A DNA stretch of 11,511 nucleotides from the IMG/VR virus record IMGVR_UViG_2671181136_000012; one strand, given 5' to 3'. Shown here one piece after another: positions 1 to 10,737 of the stretch. The DNA comes from a virus. Its lineage: Duplodnaviria; Heunggongvirae; Uroviricota; Caudoviricetes. A program made the position numbers and the translations under genes. Every line of letters starts with the position of its first letter. The first letter of the stretch is position 1. The notes under the pieces are model-generated. The model was not told the origin of the DNA. It did no database searches and worked only from the letters and a program-made list of their open reading frames with translations.

Positions 1-477
1 CACTGGTTCAGTGCCAGTCAGTGGCAGCTACCGAACGAAAGCGATTATCTGAAATTACAGTCGCTGTTTGCCCGGGTGGCAGAAGAGAAACATCAGCGCG
101 GTGAACTGGAAAAGCCCCACCACCAGCTGGTGGATACGTATACGTCACTGAACCGGCAGTATGTGGAGCTGCAGAGTGAATATAAGCATCTGCGGCGGTA
201 TTTTGGTGTGACGGCGCAGGTGCCGTACACGGATGTGTGGACACATAAACCGGTGCAGTTCTATCCCGGGAAACATCCGTGCGAAAAACCGGCAGAAATG
301 CTGCAGCAGATAATCAGCGCAAGCAGTCGTCCGGGTGACCTGGTTGCAGATTTTTTTATGGGCTCAGGTTCAACGGTAAAAGCTGCACTGGCGCTCGGGC
401 GTCGTGCGATTGGCGTTGAACTGGAGACCGGACGTTTTGAGCAGACAGTCAGGGAAGTTCAGGATTTAATCGTTTGA
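1..477 (+). CDS. DNA N6-adenine/N4-cytosine methyltransferase (PF01555-like), C-terminal part; gene starts upstream of the window
   Basis: Frame 1 is open from base 1 to the stop at 475-477 (the track ORF 76..477 starts at an internal GTG). The translation carries the C-terminal AdoMet-binding motif DFFMGSGST (FxGxG) and an HPCEKP motif resembling the HPTQKP motif of beta-class amino-methyltransferases. No adjacent restriction gene is visible. Confidence 0.7.
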   Translation, partial: HWFSASQWQLPNESDYLKLQSLFARVAEEKHQRGELEKPHHQLVDTYTSLNRQYVELQSEYKHLRRYFGVTAQVPYTDVWTHKPVQFYPGKHPCEKPAEMLQQIISASSRPGDLVADFFMGSGSTVKAALALGRRAIGVELETGRFEQTVREVQDLIV

Positions 478-526
478 AACGGATGAGATTGCAGAATTAA
501 TTACGCACCATTATTATTCTGCTTCC

Positions 527-602
527 GGCCCTTTAGCTCAGTGGTGAGAGCGAGCGACTCATAATCGCCAGGTCGCTGGTTCAAATCCAGCAAGGGCCAC
601 CA
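527..602 (+). tRNA. ileZ: tRNA-Ile2 (anticodon CAU, lysidine-type), ileZ/ileX-like
   Basis: 76 nt with a 7-bp acceptor stem (GGCCCTT/AAGGGCC), anticodon loop CTCATAA, T-loop GGTTCAAATCC and encoded CCA. It is near-identical in pattern to E. coli ileX, and this position matches the ileZ tRNA of Stx phages. Confidence 0.85.
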
Positions 603-609
603 TCACAAA

Positions 610-689
610 CCGCCATTAGCTTATCAGGAAGAGCAGACGACACGATAACAGGGTTGTTGGTGCGGGGGCGGGTCTCCGATGGCGGTCCA
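610..689 (+). pseudogene. Degenerate tRNA-like remnant (possible argN-type pseudo-tRNA)
   Basis: A perfect 7-bp acceptor-like pairing CCGCCAT (610-616) / ATGGCGG (679-685) is followed by T + CCA, and the 5' part reads TAGCTTATCAGG, like a tRNA D-arm. I could not fold a canonical anticodon arm or T-arm. Confidence 0.25.
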
Positions 690-702
690 TTATCGGTATT
701 CA

Positions 703-779
703 GCGTTGTTAGCTCAGCCGGACAGAGCAATTGCCTTCTAAGCAATCGGTCACTGGTTCGAATCCAGTACAGCGCGCCA
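703..779 (+). tRNA. argO: tRNA-Arg (anticodon UCU), argO/argU-like
   Basis: 77 nt with acceptor stem GCGTTGT/ACAGCGC (one G-U pair), anticodon loop CTTCTAA, T-loop GGTTCGAATCC and 3' GCCA. It resembles E. coli argU. Confidence 0.85.
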
Positions 780-886
780 TATTCATTCTTCCAGATTCCT
801 TTCGGCAGAGCCTTATACTGAAATATACCTGGCTCAGGATATTGTTGAAAATATTATATGTTTGTCAAAAATAAAAGTTCTGTTAA

Positions 887-1243
887 GTGTTGATTGAGTG
901 TTTGTTATACGGTCTAATGGTTTTTTCAGCATTAAATATTTATCATTCATATGGTGTGGGTAGAGTGAATATTGATGAGGCGTCGGGGTGTTTCATCCTT
1001 AGGCAGCGTATTGATATAGTCAATGCAGAACGAGCAAAGGCCTTCAGCCGTTTGACAGTTTTGTTCTGTACTCCTGATCGTCTTTCGGGAAGAGACGTTA
1101 TTATTCTGAATAGTGATGCTATACAGAGGGTTTGCGATGAGTTCATGGTGGCTAATTCAGAATTATTTGCTCTTGTTCAGGAGTACAACAGAATAGCCAG
1201 GACCTGTGGTATGGATGAACTTCGGATTACTCATCTGGGGTAG
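887..1243 (+). CDS. Hypothetical protein (118 aa from GTG 887; alternative start ATG 917)
   Basis: Six-frame ORF in an AT-rich segment directly after the tRNAs. There is no convincing Shine-Dalgarno sequence and no motif I recognise. Confidence 0.35.
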   Translation: MLIECLLYGLMVFSALNIYHSYGVGRVNIDEASGCFILRQRIDIVNAERAKAFSRLTVLFCTPDRLSGRDVIILNSDAIQRVCDEFMVANSELFALVQEYNRIARTCGMDELRITHLG

Positions 1244-1635
1244 ATACATATCTGGATTATCACCGGTTACGGTAAAAAGTGATTGCTTACTGTTTTTGTG
1301 AATGGCATTGCAGCAGCCGGATAATGTCAGTGCTGGCTGACGGTGTGCTGGTGGCGGGTGTGGTGGTTGCTGCTTTCCCGTTGCTGAAAAAGAAAACGCC
1401 AGACTGTTAGCCGGGTATCAGTTAGCGGGAGAAATTTTTAAATACTTCACAATTCAGGCGGTTGATTGTTGTCTGGTTTGCGGGGAGTTTGTTAAAAGAA
1501 ACTGGCATGGTGAATCCCCCTGTGCGGAGGGGCAATCAGCGAGTAGGTATATGGGATAATCGCGGATTCAGGTGCTGGTACTGAATTCACCGGGAGGCAC
1601 CCGGCACCATGCAATGGCACATAGCGCCACTCTCC

Positions 1636-1665
1636 AGCCCCTCTCCGGAGGGGCTGTTTATATTG
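1636..1665 (+). terminator. Rho-independent terminator-like hairpin
   Basis: Perfect 8-bp stem AGCCCCTC / GAGGGGCT with a 4-nt loop (TCCG), followed by a T-rich tract GTTTATATTGATTTT. Confidence 0.5.
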
Positions 1666-1690
1666 ATTTTGTCAGATGTGAGTAAACTCC

Positions 1691-2026
1691 TTATGGACTT
1701 TGTTGTTTTAGCCCATAAGGACATATTTGCAGAGTGCAACGGTTATTAAAGCATTCATTCAATACGTTATCTGTATTTGTAGGGCATTCCTGGCTGTTTT
1801 TGATTAAATTCCAGAATGTTTTATTGAATGGTACTACGTTGTAAATGGTTACAGGCAGCACTTTGTTATTGAGCATGATGCCTGTGTGAGTCAGTGTAAA
1901 TATACTTTCAGGAGGTAAGAAAGCATCCGATTGATACCAGATTATTAATTTTATTTTACTCCATATGACTGAAAAAGATATTCCGCATGATGGCTGGATA
2001 ACTGTATCAATCACAATCCACTTCAT
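1691..2026 (-). CDS. Hypothetical Cys-containing small protein (111 aa), AT-rich moron
   Basis: ORF on the minus strand with a good RBS (AAGGA, 6 nt before ATG at 2026). The gene is markedly AT-rich compared with its neighbours and is followed by a very AT-rich upstream region (2027-2270). Product has several Cys in the C-terminal half; no family recognised. Confidence 0.5.
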
Positions 2027-2286
2027 TTAGTTTCCTTGTTTATGCCTTGCTGGTGATGTTCTGAAAAGTATAAATGATATTTTTGATTGTAAACCATAGA
2101 GCAGAATTATTTTTCTGATGTTGTTTATTGTTTATTTAAATGCAGGGTGGTTTATATCTCGTCTTGTAGTTTATCCATGCATATCTGCTTGATGATGAGG
2201 TTTTTAATTAAGGTATGGTTTTGTGTTTTTTCTGTATTACATGTCAGGTATTTTAAAGAATCATTTTTCAGATGGTGGAAAGAACC

Positions 2287-4140
2287 ATGGCATTTAAACA
2301 CTATGATGTTGTCAGGGCGGCGTCGCCGTCAGATCTTGCGGAAAAGCTGACACATAAACTGAAAGAGGGCTGGCAGCCGTTTGGTAGTCCGGTGGCCATA
2401 ACCCCTTATACCCTGATGCAGGCGATTGCAGCAGAAGGTGATGTGGTCGTCAGTGGTGCAACTGAGCCGGAGTGGTACTACGTCATCGTACTGGCCGGGC
2501 AATCCAATGCCATGGCTTACGGTGAAGGGCTTCCGCTTCCGGATTCATACGATGCGCCCCATCCGCGCATTAAGCAACTGGCCCGTCGTAACACAGTGAC
2601 TCCCGGTGGTGAAGTATGCGTATTTAACGACATCATTCCTGCTGACCATTGTCTGCATGATGTTCAGGATATGAGTACGATTAACCATCCCCGGGCTGAC
2701 CTGAGCAAAGGGCAGTACGGCTGTGTCGGACAGGGCTTACATATTGCCAAAAAACTGCTTCCGTATATCCCTAATAATGCGGGGATCCTGCTGGTACCAT
2801 GCTGTCGTGGTGGTTCGGCATTCACCCAGGGCACGGAGGGGACATTCAGCGAGTCCACGGGGGCCAGTCAGGATTCGGCTCGCTGGGGAGTGGGTAAGCC
2901 GTTATATCAGGATCTGCTTTTCCGCACGAAGGCAGCATTGCAGAAAAACCCGAAAAACGTTTTGCTGGCGATATGCTGGATGCAGGGGGAATTCGATATG
3001 ACGAATGCCAGTTACGCCCAGCAGCCAGCAGCATTTCTTGCAATGGTACAGCAGTTCCGTGCTGACCTTGCCGGGCTGGCGGCGCAGTGTCACGGTGGAA
3101 GTCCGGCATCAGTCCCCTGGATTTGTGGCGACACGACATACGCGTGGAAACAAGAACACGGTACGCAATATGAAGTGGTATATGGTGCATATAAAGGTAA
3201 AGAATCCCAGCAGATTTATTTTGTTCCCTTTATGACCGATGGTAGCGGAGTTAATACACCGACAAACAACCCGTCAGAAGATCCTGATATTGCCGGGTCT
3301 GGTTATTACGGTTCGGCATCCCGAACGAACAAAAACTGGGTATCATCAAATCGCCCGACGCATTTCAGCTCATGGGCGCGTCGTGGCATTATTCCCGATC
3401 GTATGGCAACTGCTATTCTGAACGTAGCCGGTCGCACCTTAGCCTTCATTAGTGGTAAGGCACCGGAAATCAAACCCTCGCCCGGCGGCGACACGCCATC
3501 GGGGCCGTCTGAAGATGCATCCGTACGCACAATCTCCCTGTTGCCGACAGCCGGAGATGCTGCTGCGCAGGGCTGGAGCATTAAGAATGGCGGAATTCAG
3601 TTGTCAGATGGTGTATTTAAGATCACCAAGCAGAGCAATAAAGCCTGGTCCCTGACGCGCCCGGTGGATGACGCAGTCTCCCTGCTGACACGGGGTGGCA
3701 GACTGAGCTGTAAGTTTCGACTGTCAGGCGCACTGACCAACAATCAGTTCGGTCTGGGAATTTATCTGTATACCGATGTAGCGTTACCTGACGTCGTGGC
3801 GATGACCGGGACTGGTAACCCGTTCCTGATGTCGTTCTTCACCCAGACCACAGACGGCAAACTGAATCTGATGCATCACAGGAAAGCAGGAAACACAAAG
3901 TTGGGCGAGTTCGGGAATTACAGTAACGACTGGCAGACGCTGGAGCTGGTGTTCACCGCCGGCAGTGCCACGGTTACTCCGAAACTGAATGGAGTGGCTG
4001 GCCCGGCATTCCAGGTCATAAAAGACAGTCTGACACTGGGGCTGAATGCGCTGACGCTGACGGATATTACCAAAAATGCAACGTATGGCGTTGAGATAGA
4101 AAGTCTGGTGCTGGAGATAAATGCACCGGCATCATCATAA
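2287..4140 (+). CDS. nanS-p: Prophage sialate O-acetylesterase NanS-p-like (DUF1737 N-terminal region + SASA/SGNH esterase + C-terminal lectin-like domain)
   Basis: The N-terminus MAFKHYDVVRAASPSDL is DUF1737-like and is followed by the GQSNA esterase motif typical of SASA-family 9-O-acetylneuraminate esterases. Gene position (after the tRNA/stx locus, before the holin) is as in Stx and related lambdoid phages. Start taken at ATG 2287 (GGTGGAAAG upstream); the track ORF begins at ATG 2272 without an RBS. Confidence 0.8.
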   Translation: MAFKHYDVVRAASPSDLAEKLTHKLKEGWQPFGSPVAITPYTLMQAIAAEGDVVVSGATEPEWYYVIVLAGQSNAMAYGEGLPLPDSYDAPHPRIKQLARRNTVTPGGEVCVFNDIIPADHCLHDVQDMSTINHPRADLSKGQYGCVGQGLHIAKKLLPYIPNNAGILLVPCCRGGSAFTQGTEGTFSESTGASQDSARWGVGKPLYQDLLFRTKAALQKNPKNVLLAICWMQGEFDMTNASYAQQPAAFLAMVQQFRADLAGLAAQCHGGSPASVPWICGDTTYAWKQEHGTQYEVVYGAYKGKESQQIYFVPFMTDGSGVNTPTNNPSEDPDIAGSGYYGSASRTNKNWVSSNRPTHFSSWARRGIIPDRMATAILNVAGRTLAFISGKAPEIKPSPGGDTPSGPSEDASVRTISLLPTAGDAAAQGWSIKNGGIQLSDGVFKITKQSNKAWSLTRPVDDAVSLLTRGGRLSCKFRLSGALTNNQFGLGIYLYTDVALPDVVAMTGTGNPFLMSFFTQTTDGKLNLMHHRKAGNTKLGEFGNYSNDWQTLELVFTAGSATVTPKLNGVAGPAFQVIKDSLTLGLNALTLTDITKNATYGVEIESLVLEINAPASS

Positions 4141-4225
4141 AAAGTGAGCCAGTCAAATGGAAGGTATCGTTAAACTCACCGGTAGTGTCAGTGGGTCGTC
4201 TGAGATGCCTGCATGAGTTATCAGA

Positions 4226-4256
4226 GCCATCAGTACTTAACTGGTGGCTTTTTTTA
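4226..4256 (+). terminator. Rho-independent terminator-like hairpin upstream of the holin
   Basis: Stem GCCATCAG / CTGGTGGC (one G-U pair), 7-nt loop, then TTTTTTTATT. Confidence 0.45.
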
Positions 4257-4510: not shown

Positions 4511-5317
4511 ATGACTCAAAACTATGAACTGATTGTGAAAGGGATCCGCAATTTTGAGAATAAAGTTACGGTAACTTTAGCGTTACGGGACAAAAAACGC
4601 TTTGACGGTGAAATTTTTGACCTGGACATCTCGCTGGACCGTGTTGAAGGTGCCGCGCTGGAGGTTTATGAGGCAGCAGCCAGAAGGAGCATCAGACAGG
4701 TCTTCCTGGATGTTGCTGCCGGGTTATGTGAAGGGGATGAGCTGTCGCCGGAAAAGCGCCCCATAATTTTAGAGGCGCAGGATGTGTTGATAACCTACAA
4801 AGGAAAGCTACCGGGAAGAATTACTGGTTCTCTGAAGATGCCGCCGTCAACACTGCGGTCAGAAAAAGAGGCGTCTTGTCTGCAGTCTGAGTACTCCATT
4901 ACGGTTAAAAGTGCCGGAGAGGAAGGAAATAAACGTTATTTTATTGCGTCTGCACCTGATAAAGATCAGGAATGGGAGTGTAACCGGCCATCCTTTGTTG
5001 TATACGGAGATGGCGGGAAAATAACCATCTCAGAAAATGGGAAATTAACACCGCCATCGCACCAGCATAGTGAGGCGCTCATTGAATTTGCCATTGATTA
5101 CCTGAAGAACAATAAAAAGCAGGGGCTGATGAAGCGCATTGGTCGTTGCATGGGATATCTGCAGGTAGCAGCTGAGATTGAAATGATGGCCAGTGGTGCT
5201 GACAATGATGCAGTTGTGCTGGAGGCTCTTCTGCGTGATTTTGATAATACGCCCTTTAAGAAAGCACCTGTTGACTGGATGCAGCCGGGGATGACTTATC
5301 TGAAAGGGCGTATATAA
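4511..5317 (+). CDS. Hypothetical protein, 268 aa, inserted between holin and endolysin
   Basis: Clean 807-nt ORF with RBS GGGGAGAG (4493-4500) and a start 4 nt after the holin stop, so it is translationally placed in the late operon. Predicted soluble; no motif I recognise. Confidence 0.6.
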   Translation: MTQNYELIVKGIRNFENKVTVTLALRDKKRFDGEIFDLDISLDRVEGAALEVYEAAARRSIRQVFLDVAAGLCEGDELSPEKRPIILEAQDVLITYKGKLPGRITGSLKMPPSTLRSEKEASCLQSEYSITVKSAGEEGNKRYFIASAPDKDQEWECNRPSFVVYGDGGKITISENGKLTPPSHQHSEALIEFAIDYLKNNKKQGLMKRIGRCMGYLQVAAEIEMMASGADNDAVVLEALLRDFDNTPFKKAPVDWMQPGMTYLKGRI

Positions 5318-5326
5318 GGTGGCTCG

Positions 5327-5641
5327 TTATCTGTTGCTGGATAATCGACTGAAGATGCGTTCTTTTTGTGTTTTTGCGTAATGATTGTCCCACTCACAAT
5401 CAAGGTAGCTTAATTCTTCATTCAACCAGTTATTTATATTGGTCTTAATACGCATAAGCATGGGCTGTGTTAATGCTCTGGCGATAATGCCGAGAGTCAC
5501 AGGTGTGAGATGTCCATACGGCTCAGCCTGAATGGATTTTACTGCATCGTGTTCTTGTGGGAGGAGTAAGAGGCACTCTGATTTTACCCGCTCATTTATG
5601 GCTTGCAGGCATAAATCATAATTATGTTGATCGTTATGCAT
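5327..5641 (-). CDS. Hypothetical protein, 104 aa, convergent with the 268-aa gene
   Basis: Minus-strand ORF with a good RBS (AGGA, 6 nt before ATG at 5641). Its stop lies 9 bp from the stop of the 268-aa gene. AT-richer than the flanking lysis genes. Confidence 0.55.
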   Translation of the reverse strand: MHNDQHNYDLCLQAINERVKSECLLLLPQEHDAVKSIQAEPYGHLTPVTLGIIARALTQPMLMRIKTNINNWLNEELSYLDCEWDNHYAKTQKERIFSRLSSNR

Positions 5642-5769: not shown

Positions 5770-6303
5770 ATGAACACCAAAATCAAATATGGCCTGTCGG
5801 CTGCCGTTCTGGCGTTGATTGCCATCGGTGCGCCTGCGCCTGATATTCTCGACCAGTTTCTGGATGAAAAAGAAGGTAACCACACAACGGCATACCGTGA
5901 TGGTGCGGGTATCTGGACCATCTGCCGCGGTGCCACAATGGTGGATGGTAAACCTGTTATTCCGGGCATGAAACTGTCGAAGGAAAAATGCGACCAGGTT
6001 AATGCCATTGAACGGGATAAGGCGCTGGCATGGGTGGAGCGCAATATTAAAGTTCCACTGACCGAACCACAGAAAGCGGGTATAGCGTCATTCTGTCCCT
6101 ATAACATTGGCCCCGGTAAGTGTTTCCCGTCGACGTTTTATAAGCGGCTGAATGCTGGTGACCGCAGGGGAGCGTGTGAGGCGATTCGCTGGTGGATTAA
6201 GGACGGTGGCAGAGACTGCCGTATTCGTTCAAACAACTGCTACGGTCAGGTATCCCGTCGTGACCAGGAGAGCGCGCTGGCGTGCTGGGGTATCGACAGA
6301 TAA
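5770..6303 (+). CDS. R: SAR endolysin (lysozyme R, glycoside hydrolase family 24, R21-like)
   Basis: N-terminal signal-anchor-release segment MNTKIKYGLSAAVLALIAIGAPA and catalytic E-x8-D-x5-T motif (EGNHTTAYRDGAGIWT). 177 aa, as in Stx-phage and phage 21 R. Confidence 0.85.
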   Translation: MNTKIKYGLSAAVLALIAIGAPAPDILDQFLDEKEGNHTTAYRDGAGIWTICRGATMVDGKPVIPGMKLSKEKCDQVNAIERDKALAWVERNIKVPLTEPQKAGIASFCPYNIGPGKCFPSTFYKRLNAGDRRGACEAIRWWIKDGGRDCRIRSNNCYGQVSRRDQESALACWGIDR

Positions 6304-6392
6304 GCAGAATATTTTGCTGAAAAATAAGGCATGGCCACGCGGGCGGATAACATGAAATCCTGCGAACTGGCGAAACGTAAGTGAATAAAAGT

Positions 6393-6430
6393 AAAAACCC
6401 CGTTTGTTGGCACCAAGCGGGGTTTTGTGT
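6393..6430. terminator. Strong rho-independent terminator-like hairpin, potentially bidirectional
   Basis: AAAAA, then stem CCCCGTTTG / CAAGCGGGG (9 bp, one G-U) with a 7-nt loop, then TTTTGTGTTT. The A-tract upstream and T-tract downstream allow function on either strand. Confidence 0.55.
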
Positions 6431-6462
6431 TTCCTGACTCCGGAAAAGTCAAAGGAGAAAGT

Positions 6463-6600
6463 GTGTTTGATTTTAGCAAACTGATTCGGGAGATTCGAGT
6501 GATGGCTGAAAAATTATCCACCTGGAAGTTCATTCTTATCTGGCTGGTGTTTGTGATTATGGCCTCCGGTTATTTCATCGGTCAGATACGCTGGTGGTGA
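6463..6600 (+). CDS. Small hydrophobic membrane protein (45 aa from GTG 6463, or 32 aa from ATG 6502), translationally coupled to Rz
   Basis: RBS AAAGGAG (6451-6457) 5 nt before GTG 6463. Product ...MAEKLSTWKFILIWLVFVIMASGYFIGQIRWW has one predicted TM helix. Its stop TGA (6598-6600) is 1 nt from the Rz ATG (6602). Too short to appear in the ORF track. Confidence 0.35.
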   Translation: MFDFSKLIREIRVMAEKLSTWKFILIWLVFVIMASGYFIGQIRWW

Positions 6601-6601
6601 A

Positions 6602-7069
6602 ATGAACCGCGTACTGTGCGTGGTCATCATTGCCCTGCTGGTGGCCTGTGGTGCGCTTAGTCTGGGGCTGAATCATTACCGTGATAACGCCATAACCTAC
6701 AAAGAGCAGCGCGATAAAAAAGTCAGTGAGCTGGAGCAGGCAAATGCAACCATTACTGATATGCAGCAGCGCCAGCGTGATGTTGCTGCACTTGATGCCA
6801 GATACTCGAGGGAATTAGCCGATGCGAGAGCTGAAAATGAAACTCTGCGCGCTGACGTTGCCGCTGGTCGTAAGCGCCTGCGGATCAACGCCACCTGCCC
6901 CGGTACCGTGCGTGAAGCCCCCACCACCTCCGGCGTGGATAATGCAACCGGCCCCCGACTGGCAGACACCGCTGAACGGGATTATTTCACTCTCAGAGAG
7001 CGGTTGATGCTGATGCAGAAGCAGCTGGAAGTGGCGCAGGAATATATCCGCACTCAGTGCCTGAAATAA
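6602..7069 (+). CDS. Rz: Spanin inner-membrane subunit Rz (i-spanin)
   Basis: 155 aa with an N-terminal TM segment and a coiled-coil periplasmic domain, near-identical in pattern to lambda Rz (NHYRDNAITYK...AAGRKRL...RDYFTLRERL). Confidence 0.9.
   Translation: MNRVLCVVIIALLVACGALSLGLNHYRDNAITYKEQRDKKVSELEQANATITDMQQRQRDVAALDARYSRELADARAENETLRADVAAGRKRLRINATCPGTVREAPTTSGVDNATGPRLADTAERDYFTLRERLMLMQKQLEVAQEYIRTQCLK
6822..7007 (+). CDS. Rz1: Spanin outer-membrane lipoprotein Rz1 (o-spanin), embedded in the +1 frame of Rz
   Basis: 61 aa MRELKMKLCALTLPLVVSAC... with a lipobox (VSAC) and the proline-rich CVKPPPPPAWIMQP motif as in lambda Rz1. RBS GAGGGA 8 nt upstream. Confidence 0.85.
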   Translation: MRELKMKLCALTLPLVVSACGSTPPAPVPCVKPPPPPAWIMQPAPDWQTPLNGIISLSESG

Positions 7070-7321
7070 GTTTTGCTGATGCGCGGTATTGTCGCCGTAT
7101 CCCCGCATTAACAGAGACCGCAGCCCGACCGGGAGACTCCTCTGCGCGAGTGTGCGGGGATAATCAAAAACGATACACACCGGGGTTTACCGCGTTAACG
7201 GAGCGCGGCGTTGTCCCCTCATAGTCGCCTGTCCGGTGCGATGGTGGAAGAAACCGGACTACATTGAAAATGATAACCATTATCATTTTGCGGGTCCTTT
7301 CCGGCGATCCGGGCCGTTACG

Positions 7322-8055: not shown

Positions 8056-8722
8056 TATTCTGCGGCGTGATGTACGCGCCGGGCTGCGAGCCCTGTTCAG
8101 GCCGGAGCCACAGACTGCCGTTGAATGGGCGGATGCCAGTTACTATCTCCCGAAAGAATCCGCATACCAGGAAGGGCGCTGGGAAACACTGCCCTTTCAG
8201 CGGGCCATCATGAATGCGATGGGCAGCGACTACATCCGTGAGGTGAATGTGGTGAAGTCTGCCCGTGTCGGTTATTCCAAAATGCTGCTGGGTGTTTATG
8301 CCTACTTCATAGAGCATAAGCAGCGCAACACCCTTATCTGGTTGCCGACGGATGGTGATGCCGAGAACTTTATGAAAACCCACGTTGAGCCGACTATTCG
8401 TGATATTCCGTCGCTGCTGGCGCTGGCCCCGTGGTATGGCAAAAAGCACCGGGATAACACGCTCACCATGAAGCGTTTCACCAATGGGCGTGGCTTCTGG
8501 TGCCTGGGCGGTAAAGCGGCAAAAAACTACCGTGAAAAGTCAGTGGATGTGGCGGGTTATGATGAACTTGCTGCCTTTGATGAGGATATTGAACAGGAAG
8601 GCTCTCCAACGTTCCTGGGCGATAAGCGTATTGAAGGCTCGGTCTGGCCAAAGTCCATCCGTGGCTCCACGCCCAAAGTGAGAGGCACCTGTCAGATTGA
8701 GCGTGCAGCCAGTGAATCGTAA
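8030..8722 (+). pseudogene. A: Terminase large subunit A, 5' fragment (about 229 codons), truncated by IS insertion
   Basis: Translation matches the lambda gpA N-terminus (MNISNSQ...[61 protein letters not shown]...ERAASES), then stops at TAA 8720-8722, which is created by the IS terminus GTAAGCG beginning at 8719. Confidence 0.85.
8246..8718 (+). repeat. Direct repeat copy 1 (473 bp, terminase A internal segment)
   Basis: Bases 8246-8718 are identical, base for base, to 10265-10737 (offset 2019) in every block I compared. Confidence 0.9.
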
Positions 8723-10264
8723 GCGACTCGTCAGAACCGTATTGATATTTACTGAGAGCTCAGATCAACTTTCCAGGGCAACAGATCGCGTACCCGGTTT
8801 GCCGGCCAGTCCTGGATATGTTCAATGACGTAACGCAGCCACTTTTCTGGCTCCACATTGTTCAGACGGCATGTGCCGATCAGCGAGTACAACACCGCCG
8901 CATGTTCACCACCGCTGTCGGAACCCGCGAACATCCAGTTTTTCCGGCCTACGGCCACTCCCCGTAAGGCGTTCTCTGCGATGTTGTTGTCGATTTCCAC
9001 CCAGCCATTACTGCAGTACACGTTCAGTGCATCCCACTGTTTCAGCAGGTATGCGAACGCTTTTGCCGTATCTGAGTGACGCGACAGTGTTTTCATCTGT
9101 TGCTGTATCCAGTCATACAGTGACTGCATCAGTGGCGCGGCTCTGGCTTTTCTTGCCGCCAGACGCTGTTCTGCTGAACAGCCCCGGACCTCTGCCTCGA
9201 TGGCATACAGTTCACCGATACGCTGCAGGGCTTCCGTGGTGATGTAGGTGGGCGCTCTTGCATGCACATCGTGGATTTTTCTCCGGGCATGAGCCATACA
9301 CGCGGCTTCCGTTATTCTGCCGGATTCGTATAACGCCCGGTAACCACCGTAAGCATCGGCCTGAAGCACACCGCTGTAACCGGCCAGGTGATTTTGTGGA
9401 TGGATACCTTTCCGGTCCGGACTGTACGCGAACCAGACCGCCGGGGGCATCTGTGAACCGGCGTTACGGTCATCACGGACGTAGACCCACAGCCGGGCTG
9501 TCCGGGTTTTACCGCTGCCCGGCTCCTGGACCGGGACGGGGATATCATCAGCATGGACTTTACCGGGCATCAGCACATACTGGCGCAGGACGTCATACAG
9601 CGGCTCCAGCAGTTCAGCAACAGCACCTGTCCAGCGCCCCAGTGTGGCACGGCTCAGCTCCACTCCCTGACGACGGTATATTTCTGACTGGCGGTATAAC
9701 GGCAGATGGTCTGCATATTTCCCGGTGACAACATGGGCCAGAAGCCCCGCTCCGGCATAACTGCGTGCAATGGGTTTTGAAGGTACTGGTGCCTGCACGA
9801 TATGGTCGCACCGGCAACAGGCCTGTTTCGGACGTTGTGTTTCGATAACCTTAAAGGCGCTGCTGATAAGCTCCAGTTGCTCTGACACATCACATCCCAG
9901 AGAACTGAGTTCACCACCACAGGCAGGACAGCATTCCTCTTCCGGCCGGATAACCCGGGTTTCACGGGGAAGTGAGGCCGGTAACGGTTTACGGGCTGAA
10001 GACTGGCGCAGGGCGGATGGCAGTACCGGGTCATATTGCTCACCCAGCGTTTCCGCCATTTCTTCCTGAAGTGCGCTGATTCGCTCCTGTGCTTCCTGTA
10101 TCTGCCGTTCGGTTTTTGCACGAAGTTTTTCTGAGCTTTTACCGAACTGCATGCGCTGCAGTTTTGCAACCAGCGCCTTCAGCCGGTTGATTTCGGAAGC
10201 ATAAGCCGCCACCCGCTGTGAGAGCAGGCAGTTGTATTCAGCCATCTGGCGGATGGTGTCCTGT
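8719..10264 (-). mobile_element. Truncated IS66-family insertion sequence (one terminus plus the tnpC-type transposase gene only; orfA/orfB and the other inverted repeat are absent)
   Basis: The terminus at 8719 begins GTAAGCG, the characteristic IS66-family inverted-repeat start. The segment contains only the 498-aa transposase ORF with 30 bp and 19 bp flanks. At 10264/10265 the element abuts internal terminase sequence with no inverted repeat. Confidence 0.75.
8749..10245 (-). CDS. tnpC: IS66-family transposase (TnpC/orf3-type)
   Basis: 498 aa with an N-terminal coiled-coil/leucine-zipper region, Cys motifs CCPACGGEL ... CCRCDHIV (zinc finger typical of IS66 TnpC), and the conserved C-terminal region ...[47 protein letters not shown].... 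Confidence 0.85.
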
Positions 10265-10737
10265 AATGTGGTGAAGTCTGCCCGTGTCGGTTATTCCAAA
10301 ATGCTGCTGGGTGTTTATGCCTACTTCATAGAGCATAAGCAGCGCAACACCCTTATCTGGTTGCCGACGGATGGTGATGCCGAGAACTTTATGAAAACCC
10401 ACGTTGAGCCGACTATTCGTGATATTCCGTCGCTGCTGGCGCTGGCCCCGTGGTATGGCAAAAAGCACCGGGATAACACGCTCACCATGAAGCGTTTCAC
10501 CAATGGGCGTGGCTTCTGGTGCCTGGGCGGTAAAGCGGCAAAAAACTACCGTGAAAAGTCAGTGGATGTGGCGGGTTATGATGAACTTGCTGCCTTTGAT
10601 GAGGATATTGAACAGGAAGGCTCTCCAACGTTCCTGGGCGATAAGCGTATTGAAGGCTCGGTCTGGCCAAAGTCCATCCGTGGCTCCACGCCCAAAGTGA
10701 GAGGCACCTGTCAGATTGAGCGTGCAGCCAGTGAATC
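10265..10737 (+). repeat. Direct repeat copy 2 (473 bp, terminase A internal segment)
   Basis: Identical to 8246-8718. Beyond 10737 the sequence continues as uninterrupted terminase A (…ERAASESPHFMRFHVACPHCGEEQY…), whereas copy 1 is followed by the IS terminus. Confidence 0.9.

Follow-up and report, generated by a model that had tools for sequence, protein, structure and literature searches.

What are a terminator-like hairpin and a small open reading frame (ORF) doing between the endolysin gene R and the spanin gene Rz of a lambdoid late operon? The question is raised by an 11,511-nucleotide (nt) stretch of viral DNA, IMG/VR record IMGVR_UViG_2671181136_000012 (the window in what follows), which is a lambdoid, Shiga toxin (Stx)-phage-like late region of an Escherichia coli prophage without stx genes. 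An earlier note on this DNA, made from its letters only, had remarked that about 300 bp intervene between R and Rz, unlike in lambda. We find a gap of 298 nt, from the end of R at 6303 to the start of Rz at 6602. Since R and Rz overlap by 4 nt in lambda, and rrrQ and rzpQ likewise overlap in the K-12 prophage Qin, the gap consists of extra DNA, and its lower GC content (0.44, vs 0.53 for R and 0.56 for Rz) suggests that this DNA is foreign.

Our answer is that the gap carries a portable cassette made of a bidirectional terminator hairpin and a membrane-peptide gene. That the cassette, the translation of its peptide and the selection on its hairpin hold together is, in our judgement, very probable. 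The fuller reading that we favour, with a probability of roughly 0.45, is that the peptide would be made late under the gate of the antiterminator Q, while a cis-antisense RNA of about 80 nt, ending at the shared bidirectional terminator, would guard its translation much as in toxin-antitoxin (TA) systems of type I. The parts of the cassette lie in the window as follows.

6380 to 6393, no strand assigned: A-rich tract AATAAAAGTAAAAA, which on the minus strand is a terminator U-tail.
6394 to 6426, both strands: GC-rich hairpin with the shape of an intrinsic terminator in either direction.
6427 to 6436, plus strand: T-rich tail of the plus-strand terminator; TTTTGTGTTT begins at 6423, within the extended stem.
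6451 to 6457, plus strand: Shine-Dalgarno (SD) sequence AAAGGAG, which a 5-nt spacer separates from the GTG at 6463; relatives keep a core of GGAG or GAGG here.
6463 to 6600, plus strand: small ORF with a GTG start and 45 amino acids (aa), VFDFSKLIREIRVMAEKLSTWKFILIWLVFVIMASGYFIGQIRWW, for a single-pass peptide predicted to lie N-in/C-out.
6592 to 6604, plus strand: Rz ribosome-binding region GGTGGTG, within the last codons of the small ORF, followed by TGA, 1 nt and the Rz ATG.

The description given in the earlier note survives closer inspection. The potentially bidirectional hairpin that it placed at 6393-6430 resolves into a 13-bp stem at 6394-6426 with T-rich tails on both strands; the small ORF that it saw behind AAAGGAG begins with GTG at 6463 and runs for 45 codons; the peptide does have one transmembrane (TM) segment, at residues ~24-42; and the stop, TGA at 6598-6600, does leave 1 nt before the Rz ATG at 6602. 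Conservation of the ORF at the protein level in relatives, whose absence that note would have counted as a refutation, is likewise found. What it missed is that the hairpin travels with the ORF as a cassette, that the cassette also occupies sites outside lysis genes, and that a promoter-like element lies in the 5' end of the ORF. As this element faces the hairpin, it offers a possible reason why the terminator lies 5' of the gene and looks bidirectional.

To begin with the peptide, pN/pS (nonsynonymous over synonymous divergence) among 55 distinct nucleotide versions of the same length is 0.24 in frame, vs 0.97 and 2.40 in the other frames, and comparison with relatives thus shows the small ORF to be a real gene under purifying selection. 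The ratio for codons 3-13 alone is 0.29, therefore the N-terminus beginning at the GTG is presumably translated as well. The full-length peptide is kept from E. coli to Pseudomonas at 37-50% identity, and its start codon is GTG or TTG in all members except for one Pseudomonas lineage with ATG. The TM segment has a Kyte-Doolittle hydropathy (KD) of 2.1; five K/R residues in the N-terminal flank and a C-terminal tail of only three residues (RWW) lead to the predicted N-in/C-out orientation. PGAP annotates exactly this ORF, 6463-6600, as hypothetical protein WP_000459345.1, and its PHROG match, phrog_6632 (E=6e-30), is labelled 'unknown function'. The family is small, with 30 cluster representatives among 1.84 billion proteins, and the 84 matches of a profile search are all named 'hypothetical' or 'phage protein'. 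The peptide has no Pfam, NCBIfam or PADLOC match, and no named toxin resembles it in sequence. It does not qualify as a holin or antiholin either: searches in Pfam, NCBIfam and PHROGs return no functional match, the C-terminal tail is merely RWW, and about two-thirds of its contexts lie outside lysis cassettes. We found no paper for the peptide sequence or its accession. Among the named small proteins of K-12 there is no counterpart at this position, Qin having no gap and ynfQ and ynfR being located elsewhere.

Both ends of the ORF deserve comment. Met14 (window 6502, plus strand) is invariant throughout the family and is preceded, 9 nt upstream, by (A/C)GGGAG in the enterobacterial members and by a weak version in the Pseudomonas members; some annotations take the 32-aa form starting there, and a dual start as in S holins is possible. 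At the other end, the last codons CGC TGG TGG TGA make up the Rz ribosome-binding site, and because this site lies within the ORF, Rz translation is probably coupled to that of the peptide. The same junction, RWW, stop, one or two nucleotides and ATG, is found in SPN3UB, C. braakii, EDL933 and Ecol_542. The 57- and 72-codon upstream extensions of the ORF were rejected, as they run through the hairpin or are not conserved, and so was a DnaA-box-like TTATCCACC at 6512-6520, also not conserved.

The evidence for the hairpin is mainly comparative. By its sequence, a GC-rich stem-loop followed by a U-rich tract, an intrinsic terminator is predicted at 6394-6426 on both strands: the 13-bp stem includes 6 GC pairs and closes a 7-nt loop, the fold energies are -21.5 kcal/mol on the plus strand and -18.8 on the minus strand, and the T-rich tails are TTTTGTGTTT (plus) and TTTTTACTTT (minus). 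A generic terminator scan does not set it apart from chance, with 4 found in the region vs 3.6 expected and hence no enrichment, and the single-sequence fold reaches a z-score of only about -2. The case rests instead on 15 relatives, in which both strands were folded. In an alignment of 15 diverse leaders the pairing is kept in 94% of cells, although stem sequences vary (for instance AAAACCCCG, AAAGCCCCG, AACCCCCGA and AAATCCCCG); double-sided stem changes number 19, vs 7.2 +/- 2.1 in shuffles (0/500 reach 19), and the covariation score is 0.30, vs a maximum of 0.11 in slid registers. These comparisons show the hairpin to be under structural selection. The plus-strand tails hold 6-9 T in 10 positions in all members, and the 10-nt minus-strand tails hold 6-8 T in the correctly parsed members. 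The AAAGCnAAA-like tract 5' of the stem, which is a TTTnGCTTT tail on the minus strand, is present in unrelated insertion contexts.

A weak hairpin at 6431-6457 (plus strand), whose 3' arm covers the Shine-Dalgarno sequence, was dropped: its energy is -6 to -10 kcal/mol, with z ~0 against shuffles. The Shine-Dalgarno sequence falls within such a 3' arm in 11 of 16 members, and the arm sequences differ between members.

Judged by its distribution, the hairpin together with the small ORF is one mobile unit. Peptide homologues were gathered by tblastn and pattern scans; a first scan of viral contigs gave identical copies only, and a second scan was led by a divergent member. Some 25 distinct versions, found in Enterobacterales and Pseudomonas, have a like-shaped hairpin ~35 nt 5' of the peptide gene, with compensatory changes in the stem, and the order of A-tract, GC-stem hairpin and T-tract at that distance from the start codon holds in all homologues but one. 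In Salmonella phage SPN3UB the homologue separates lysozyme from Rz; Salmonella phage SEN34 and Escherichia phage Rac-SA53 have it between the baseplate genes V and W; and in Pseudomonas phage YMC11/02/R656 it lies among tail genes, with a second small TM ORF right 3' of the unit. Prophage homologues occur in Citrobacter, Trabulsiella, Yersinia, Sodalis, Brenneria, Pantoea, Providencia, P. reactans and P. fluorescens. Flanks define 18 distinct contexts among the 225 loci with enough flanking sequence, including endolysin/spanin and baseplate V/W junctions and the ends of tail-gene operons. The upstream neighbours, by Pfam, are GH24, GH19 and CHAP muralytic enzymes, gpV spike, S74 tail fibre, lambda tail-I-like protein, tail assembly chaperone and large polyvalent protein, and the unit always has the same orientation as the upstream late gene. 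Endolysin/spanin junctions recur as sites of the unit and are not its sole sites. The intact unit is found in 871 of 5,426 complete E. coli genomes, and is carried by H-19B and many Stx1/Stx2 converting phages.

This distribution bears on two further suggestions of the earlier note. Its remark that a terminator at this place would need Q antitermination for spanin expression is consistent with the data, every characterised context being a lambdoid late operon with a Q-like antiterminator 5' of the unit. SPN3UB and SEN34 both encode Q-like proteins, and SEN34, with the unit between the essential baseplate genes V and W, is the clearest case. Its proposal of an additional lysis or membrane factor stands as regards the membrane peptide, while lysis becomes one possibility only, since the cassette is also found outside lysis cassettes. 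More generally, a terminator inside a late operon need not be a feature of that operon; it can belong to a mobile cassette.

The R-Rz gap, for its part, is a cargo site where genes for small membrane peptides gather, and other R21-type prophages fill it differently. In EDL933 a decayed stub and then an unrelated 37-aa TM ORF come after the same hairpin and Shine-Dalgarno sequence; Ecol_542 has the hairpin and then four tandem small TM ORFs, the first of which is a homologue of the window's small ORF. In the Sakai prophages Sp6, Sp9, Sp10 and Sp15 the gap holds an antirepressor gene and a 48-aa TM ORF, without the hairpin, and the similarity of Sp9 to the window stops within a few bases of the GC stem. 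Other E. coli prophage gaps (loci L006 3055-3696, L005 3046-3380 and L102 827-973) hold unrelated small single-TM ORFs, up to four in tandem, which belong to phrog_4906, phrog_1115 and phrog_4493/3246; the one that abuts Rz also ends in IRWW-stop. Antirepressor-type genes (Ant, AntA, Bro-N, Rha) repeatedly adjoin the unit or replace it in the gap (L011 2981-3538, minus; L096 3308-4063, minus; L121 2889-3443, plus; L268 2697-3144, minus; L102 258-827), and seem to share insertion hot spots with it.

The second layer of the favoured reading comes from the codons of the peptide gene. Synonymous divergence (pS) is 3.3-fold lower in codons 3-13 than elsewhere in the small ORF (0.12 vs 0.41). In 15 of 15 diverse members D3 is GAT, S5 is AGC, E10 is GAG and R12 is the rare codon CGA, and position 4 is always NTT, while several codons are in use at the conserved residues I8, F23, K22, L7, R9 and L18. 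The comparison shows a nucleotide-level constraint that overlaps codons 3-12. On the minus strand these codons read TCGAAT (or TCGCAA), 17 nt and TGnTAAAAT, which resembles an extended -10 promoter facing the hairpin. The predicted features on that strand are the following.

6470 to 6478, minus strand: predicted extended -10, TGCTAAAAT, inside codons D3-F4-S5-K6.
6493 to 6498, minus strand: predicted -35, TCGAAT, 17 nt from the -10 and overlapping the frozen R12 CGA codon.
6383 to 6463, minus strand: predicted cis-antisense RNA of ~80 nt, with an anti-SD 5' end, an A-rich linker, the terminator hairpin and a U-tail.

Scored with a rough sigma-70 matrix and an arbitrary 2-bit bonus for the TG, this motif is the best sigma-70-like site among the 22,968 positions of the whole window on both strands. 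It is intact in 21 of the 21 distinct proteins first collected. Where the residues change, to D-Y-S-K, D-L-S-K or S-E-F-S-K, the -10 becomes TATAGT, TAAGAT or TAAACT, respectively; TG, T-12, A-11 and T-7 stay constant and only tolerant positions vary. AGC is the sole serine codon that gives both T-12 and TG. One variant with a replaced N-terminus (L268), which has no D-F-S-K region and has CGT at R12, also lacks the hairpin. Taken globally, these alignments show the promoter-like motif to be conserved. Another promoter-like site on the minus strand, 6585-6556, was flagged by a scan and rejected, as it is not conserved in relatives. On the plus strand, no sigma-70-like site was found from the left edge of the unit to the start codon.

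From the geometry of promoter and terminator we infer an antisense RNA that would start near 6463, cross the complement of the start codon and Shine-Dalgarno sequence, pass through the hairpin on the other strand and then read UUUUUACUUUUAUU. Its predicted length is 77-84 nt in 16 members, most of which share a two-hairpin fold: a 5' hairpin with the anti-SD UUCUCC, an A-rich linker and the terminator. As the minus-strand tail TTTnGCTTT moves with the unit into unrelated contexts, a role of the hairpin on the plus strand only is hard to sustain.

Mechanistically, the absence of a plus-strand promoter in the unit would leave the peptide mRNA to polymerases coming from upstream that ignore the terminator, that is, to the Q-modified late complex. 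The peptide would be made only late, because no sense promoter is present and its own terminator sits 5' of it in an operon read by Q. In the lysogen, ordinary read-through would halt at the hairpin. Meanwhile the extended -10 in codons 3-12, facing backwards, would drive constitutive synthesis of the ~80-nt antisense RNA, which would cover the start codon and Shine-Dalgarno sequence, end at the other strand of the hairpin and block the translation of any stray peptide mRNA. After induction, the flood of late transcripts would out-titrate the antisense RNA, the peptide would insert in the inner membrane late in infection, and its gene would pass ribosomes on to Rz through the Rz ribosome-binding site in its last codons. 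The double lock, together with the non-ATG start, suggests that the peptide is harmful to an intact cell. Given its place between a signal-arrest-release (SAR) endolysin and Rz, disturbing the membrane and tuning lysis would be its most plausible effects. The pinholin and SAR-endolysin system of phage 21 lysis is triggered by depolarisation; in a cassette of this kind, such as the window has, one would thus expect lysis to come earlier or more sharply if the peptide perturbs the membrane. The efficiency of the terminator, the toxicity of the peptide and any role in lysis are things that we infer.

Several points weigh against this reading, and some of them favour a simpler one, in which the same cassette has no antisense RNA. 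The hairpin would then be a plus-strand terminator or insulator that limits the peptide and the downstream genes to Q-modified transcription, the frozen codons would reflect a constraint on translation initiation or mRNA structure, and the peptide would be an ordinary accessory membrane protein made late, for instance one that modulates lysis or excludes superinfecting phages. We hold this to be a credible contender, though one that we would adopt only tentatively. Plus-strand terminator features are kept in every member. In EDL933-type gaps the hairpin stays well conserved despite a deletion of the D-F-S-K region and, with it, of the putative promoter, so it is of use even when that promoter is absent. 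The -35 is weak, matching at only 3 of 6 positions, and the roughness of the scoring matrix lowers the weight of the rank. Freezing also extends beyond the motif (the third base of K/Q17 is A in 15 of 15, and L18 is mostly TTA); AU-rich codons are common near starts, and part of the signal could come from such a preference in the 5' codons or from mRNA structure. Retrieval relied mostly on D[FI]SK peptide seeds, which biases the residues, not the choice of codons. The toxin gene of a canonical type I system is driven by a promoter of its own, and the unit shows none; about two-thirds of the contexts lie outside lysis cassettes, so a lysis role is not required. Nor is any small RNA (sRNA) on record at the gap. 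Rfam 15 gives nothing at gathering score, and only weak matches to generic leader models in E-value mode. No EcOnc peak from Hfq crosslinking-immunoprecipitation (CLIP) in O157 Sakai falls in an R-Rz gap, but the four Sakai prophages checked, Sp6, Sp9, Sp10 and Sp15, have no intact unit and are hence uninformative; the peaks EcOnc10/11/12, 33 and 52, once mapped, fall beyond Rz or at the esterase gene's 3' end. The Pas sRNA preprint and the spanin census mention the gap in neither case, and we found no paper or database entry on the peptide, the hairpin-ORF linkage or an RNA at the gap. A cassette without antisense RNA nevertheless leaves much unexplained: the conserved minus-strand U-tail carried into unrelated contexts, an invariable AGC at Ser5, where six codons would serve and this one is not AU-rich, and an R12 that is always the rare CGA, the preservation of TG-n-TAnnnT whenever residues 3-4 change, and the presence here of the best promoter-like site in 11.5 kb.

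Two further explanations accept less of the picture. The minus-strand RNA might be the main product, acting in trans on host or phage RNAs as AsxR and AgvB do, with the overlap of the peptide gene incidental. O157 prophages do have short sRNAs that are antisense to late transcription and lie in convergent pairs at moron sites (PMC4104026), and in the predicted RNA the 5' end is accessible and is joined by an A-rich linker and a U-tailed terminator. We consider this improbable, however, since in its 5' part the RNA exactly complements the Shine-Dalgarno sequence and start of the peptide gene and co-varies with them, since purifying selection on the peptide argues that it is no by-product, and since the RNA bears no likeness to the AsxR or AgvB models in Rfam. 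The remaining idea, that ORF and hairpin are without function and are what decay is leaving of a larger insertion (the antirepressor gene of the Sakai gap, for example), can point to a hot spot with many alternative contents and to the evidently decayed EDL933 version. The conservation data already contradict it, with a pN/pS of 0.24 in frame only, a full-length peptide at 37-50% identity from E. coli to Pseudomonas, compensatory stem changes, and intact units in 871 of 5,426 complete E. coli genomes; as far as sequence comparison can tell, it has next to no chance of being right.

The surroundings of the cassette are those of a lambdoid, Stx-phage-like late region. The window runs from two tRNAs, the PR'-leader sRNA STnc100, a sialate O-acetylesterase gene and an S21-type holin, through a DUF1327 protein, an R21-type lysozyme (5770-6303), the 298-nt gap and Rz with its embedded Rz1, to the terminase small subunit and a terminase large-subunit gene split by an IS66 element. 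The immediate neighbours of the cassette are these.

5770 to 6303, plus strand: R, SAR-type (phage 21-like) lysozyme 5' of the gap; Pfam Phage_lysozyme E=2.8e-25; lysozyme/endolysin in the annotation of relatives.
6304 to 6379, plus strand: post-R leader, common to other R21-type prophages regardless of what follows in the gap (EDL933, Ecol_542, Sakai Sp9).
6602 to 7069, plus strand: Rz (i-spanin); Pfam Phage_lysis E=8e-49.
6822 to 7007, plus strand: Rz1 (o-spanin), embedded in Rz; Pfam Rz1 E=8e-21.

The stretch from R through the gap to Rz is 92-93% identical to many Stx1/Stx2 converting phages and to H-19B, and a 401-nt query spanning the gap (6250-6650) finds a match of 100% identity in a prophage of E. 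coli O157:H16 98-3133. A 17-codon ATG ORF in the leader (6331-6384) was rejected as a gene because it is not conserved.

Some observations elsewhere in the window are recorded in their own right. STnc100, a PR'-proximal prophage sRNA at 1476-1665 (plus strand; Rfam match of 132 bits, E=1e-29), marks the start of the late operon ~4.8 kb 5' of the gap, and a 2026 preprint links it to PasD. Just 3' of Rz, at 7124-7211 on the minus strand and antisense to late transcription, lies a near-identical copy of EcOnc12 (local alignment score 82 of 88 possible), a candidate sRNA which, with its repeats EcOnc10 and EcOnc11, forms Hfq-bound peaks in Sp9, Sp10 and Sp12 of O157 Sakai. Another terminator-like hairpin, of 12 bp, separates the esterase gene from the holin (4223-4251, plus strand); at the equivalent position, the 3' end of the Sakai esterase gene (1557089-1557136, 1181998-1182075), there are Hfq-bound antisense peaks, EcOnc33, which measures ~71 nt on a Northern blot, and EcOnc52. 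Between S and R, the DUF1327/YdfR-family gene (4511-5317, plus strand) encodes 268 aa vs ~114 aa in relatives, and its family match covers residues 1-100 only. On the opposite strand just 5' of R there is a 104-aa ORF (5327-5641, minus strand), and one phage record has a 104-aa hypothetical protein at the matching place, likewise on the opposite strand just 5' of R. Finally, a 473-bp exact direct repeat of terminase large-subunit sequence (8246-8718 and 10265-10737) flanks the IS66-family transposase gene (8749-10245, minus strand); it far exceeds the normal IS66 target duplication and could be a rearrangement or an assembly artefact.

The cassette matters for where it sits. It is common in E. 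coli and yet unannotated or labelled 'hypothetical', and it lies among the genes that decide the time of bursting, which is Shiga toxin's exit from the cell. Should the peptide perturb the membrane, it would be a direct input to the depolarisation-triggered pinholin/SAR-endolysin system, and the unit could affect when Shiga-toxin-type phages burst their host. If the proposed architecture is true, it is a compact example of how phages silence a dangerous late gene in lysogens, in which a single hairpin would both gate sense transcription and terminate a guard RNA that starts inside the gene. A bolder generalisation, which we think unlikely as it stands, would make the unit the founding member of an unrecognised class of phage modules: a toxic inner-membrane peptide under two locks that share one bidirectional terminator, hopping between late-operon junctions and setting the lysis timing of Stx phages. 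The two locks would be the gating of the sense transcript by processive antitermination and a cis-antisense RNA from the peptide's own first codons. Such modules would move among temperate phages from Enterobacterales to Pseudomonas and, in Stx-type phages, would act as a depolarising trigger that times pinholin/SAR-endolysin lysis and hence toxin release.

Among known systems to compare are lysis cassettes with accessory membrane proteins: P2 LysA, which lies between the endolysin K and the spanin LysB, Mu releasin and the T4 antiholins. As in these, a small membrane protein is placed between endolysin and spanin, here in a SAR-endolysin and pinholin cassette; unlike these, which are larger or multi-pass, our peptide has no known homology to them and is also found among baseplate and tail genes. 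The prophage anti-sRNAs AsxR and AgvB, together with the convergent sRNA pairs that O157 prophages carry at moron sites, are short RNAs antisense to late transcription (PMC4104026; Tree et al. 2014), and the RNA predicted here would share their direction relative to the lambdoid late transcript. They differ in lying just 3' of PR' and not in the lysis cassette, in being trans-acting sRNA sponges, in their unrelated sequences and in overlapping no peptide gene.

Lambdoid morons (Juhala et al. 2000, as summarised in PMC4104026) offer another comparison. Like them, the unit is extra DNA of lower GC content between genes that are adjacent in lambda or Qin, and it occupies different intergenic sites in different phages, as its 18 contexts attest. 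A classical moron, however, is a promoter-gene-terminator unit expressed from the prophage, whereas our unit has its terminator 5', no sense promoter and a design for silence in the lysogen. An own promoter with a downstream terminator is not found in it, and there is no hairpin between the small ORF and Rz.

In its way of working, the unit would most resemble a type I TA system with a cis-antisense RNA over the ribosome-binding site, such as hok/sok, including hokW-sokW of the Stx2 prophage Sp5, for which PMC8621323 reports an aid to phage release, or symE/symR. The likeness comprises a hydrophobic single-TM peptide of fewer than 60 aa (here 45 aa), a phage-borne location, a weak, guarded translation start, and a predicted antisense RNA of 75-85 nt over the Shine-Dalgarno sequence and start that ends in an intrinsic terminator. 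Unlike these systems, the unit has no similarity to named toxins and no plus-strand promoter of its own, it is co-directional within a Q-antiterminated late operon, behind a terminator, and its antisense RNA and toxicity are putative. Because it lacks a toxin promoter of its own, we do not file it as a type I TA system. What the comparison points to is a conserved, mobile terminator-peptide cassette that appears to combine moron traits with type I TA-like ones, and whose antisense-RNA layer is well supported as a prediction.

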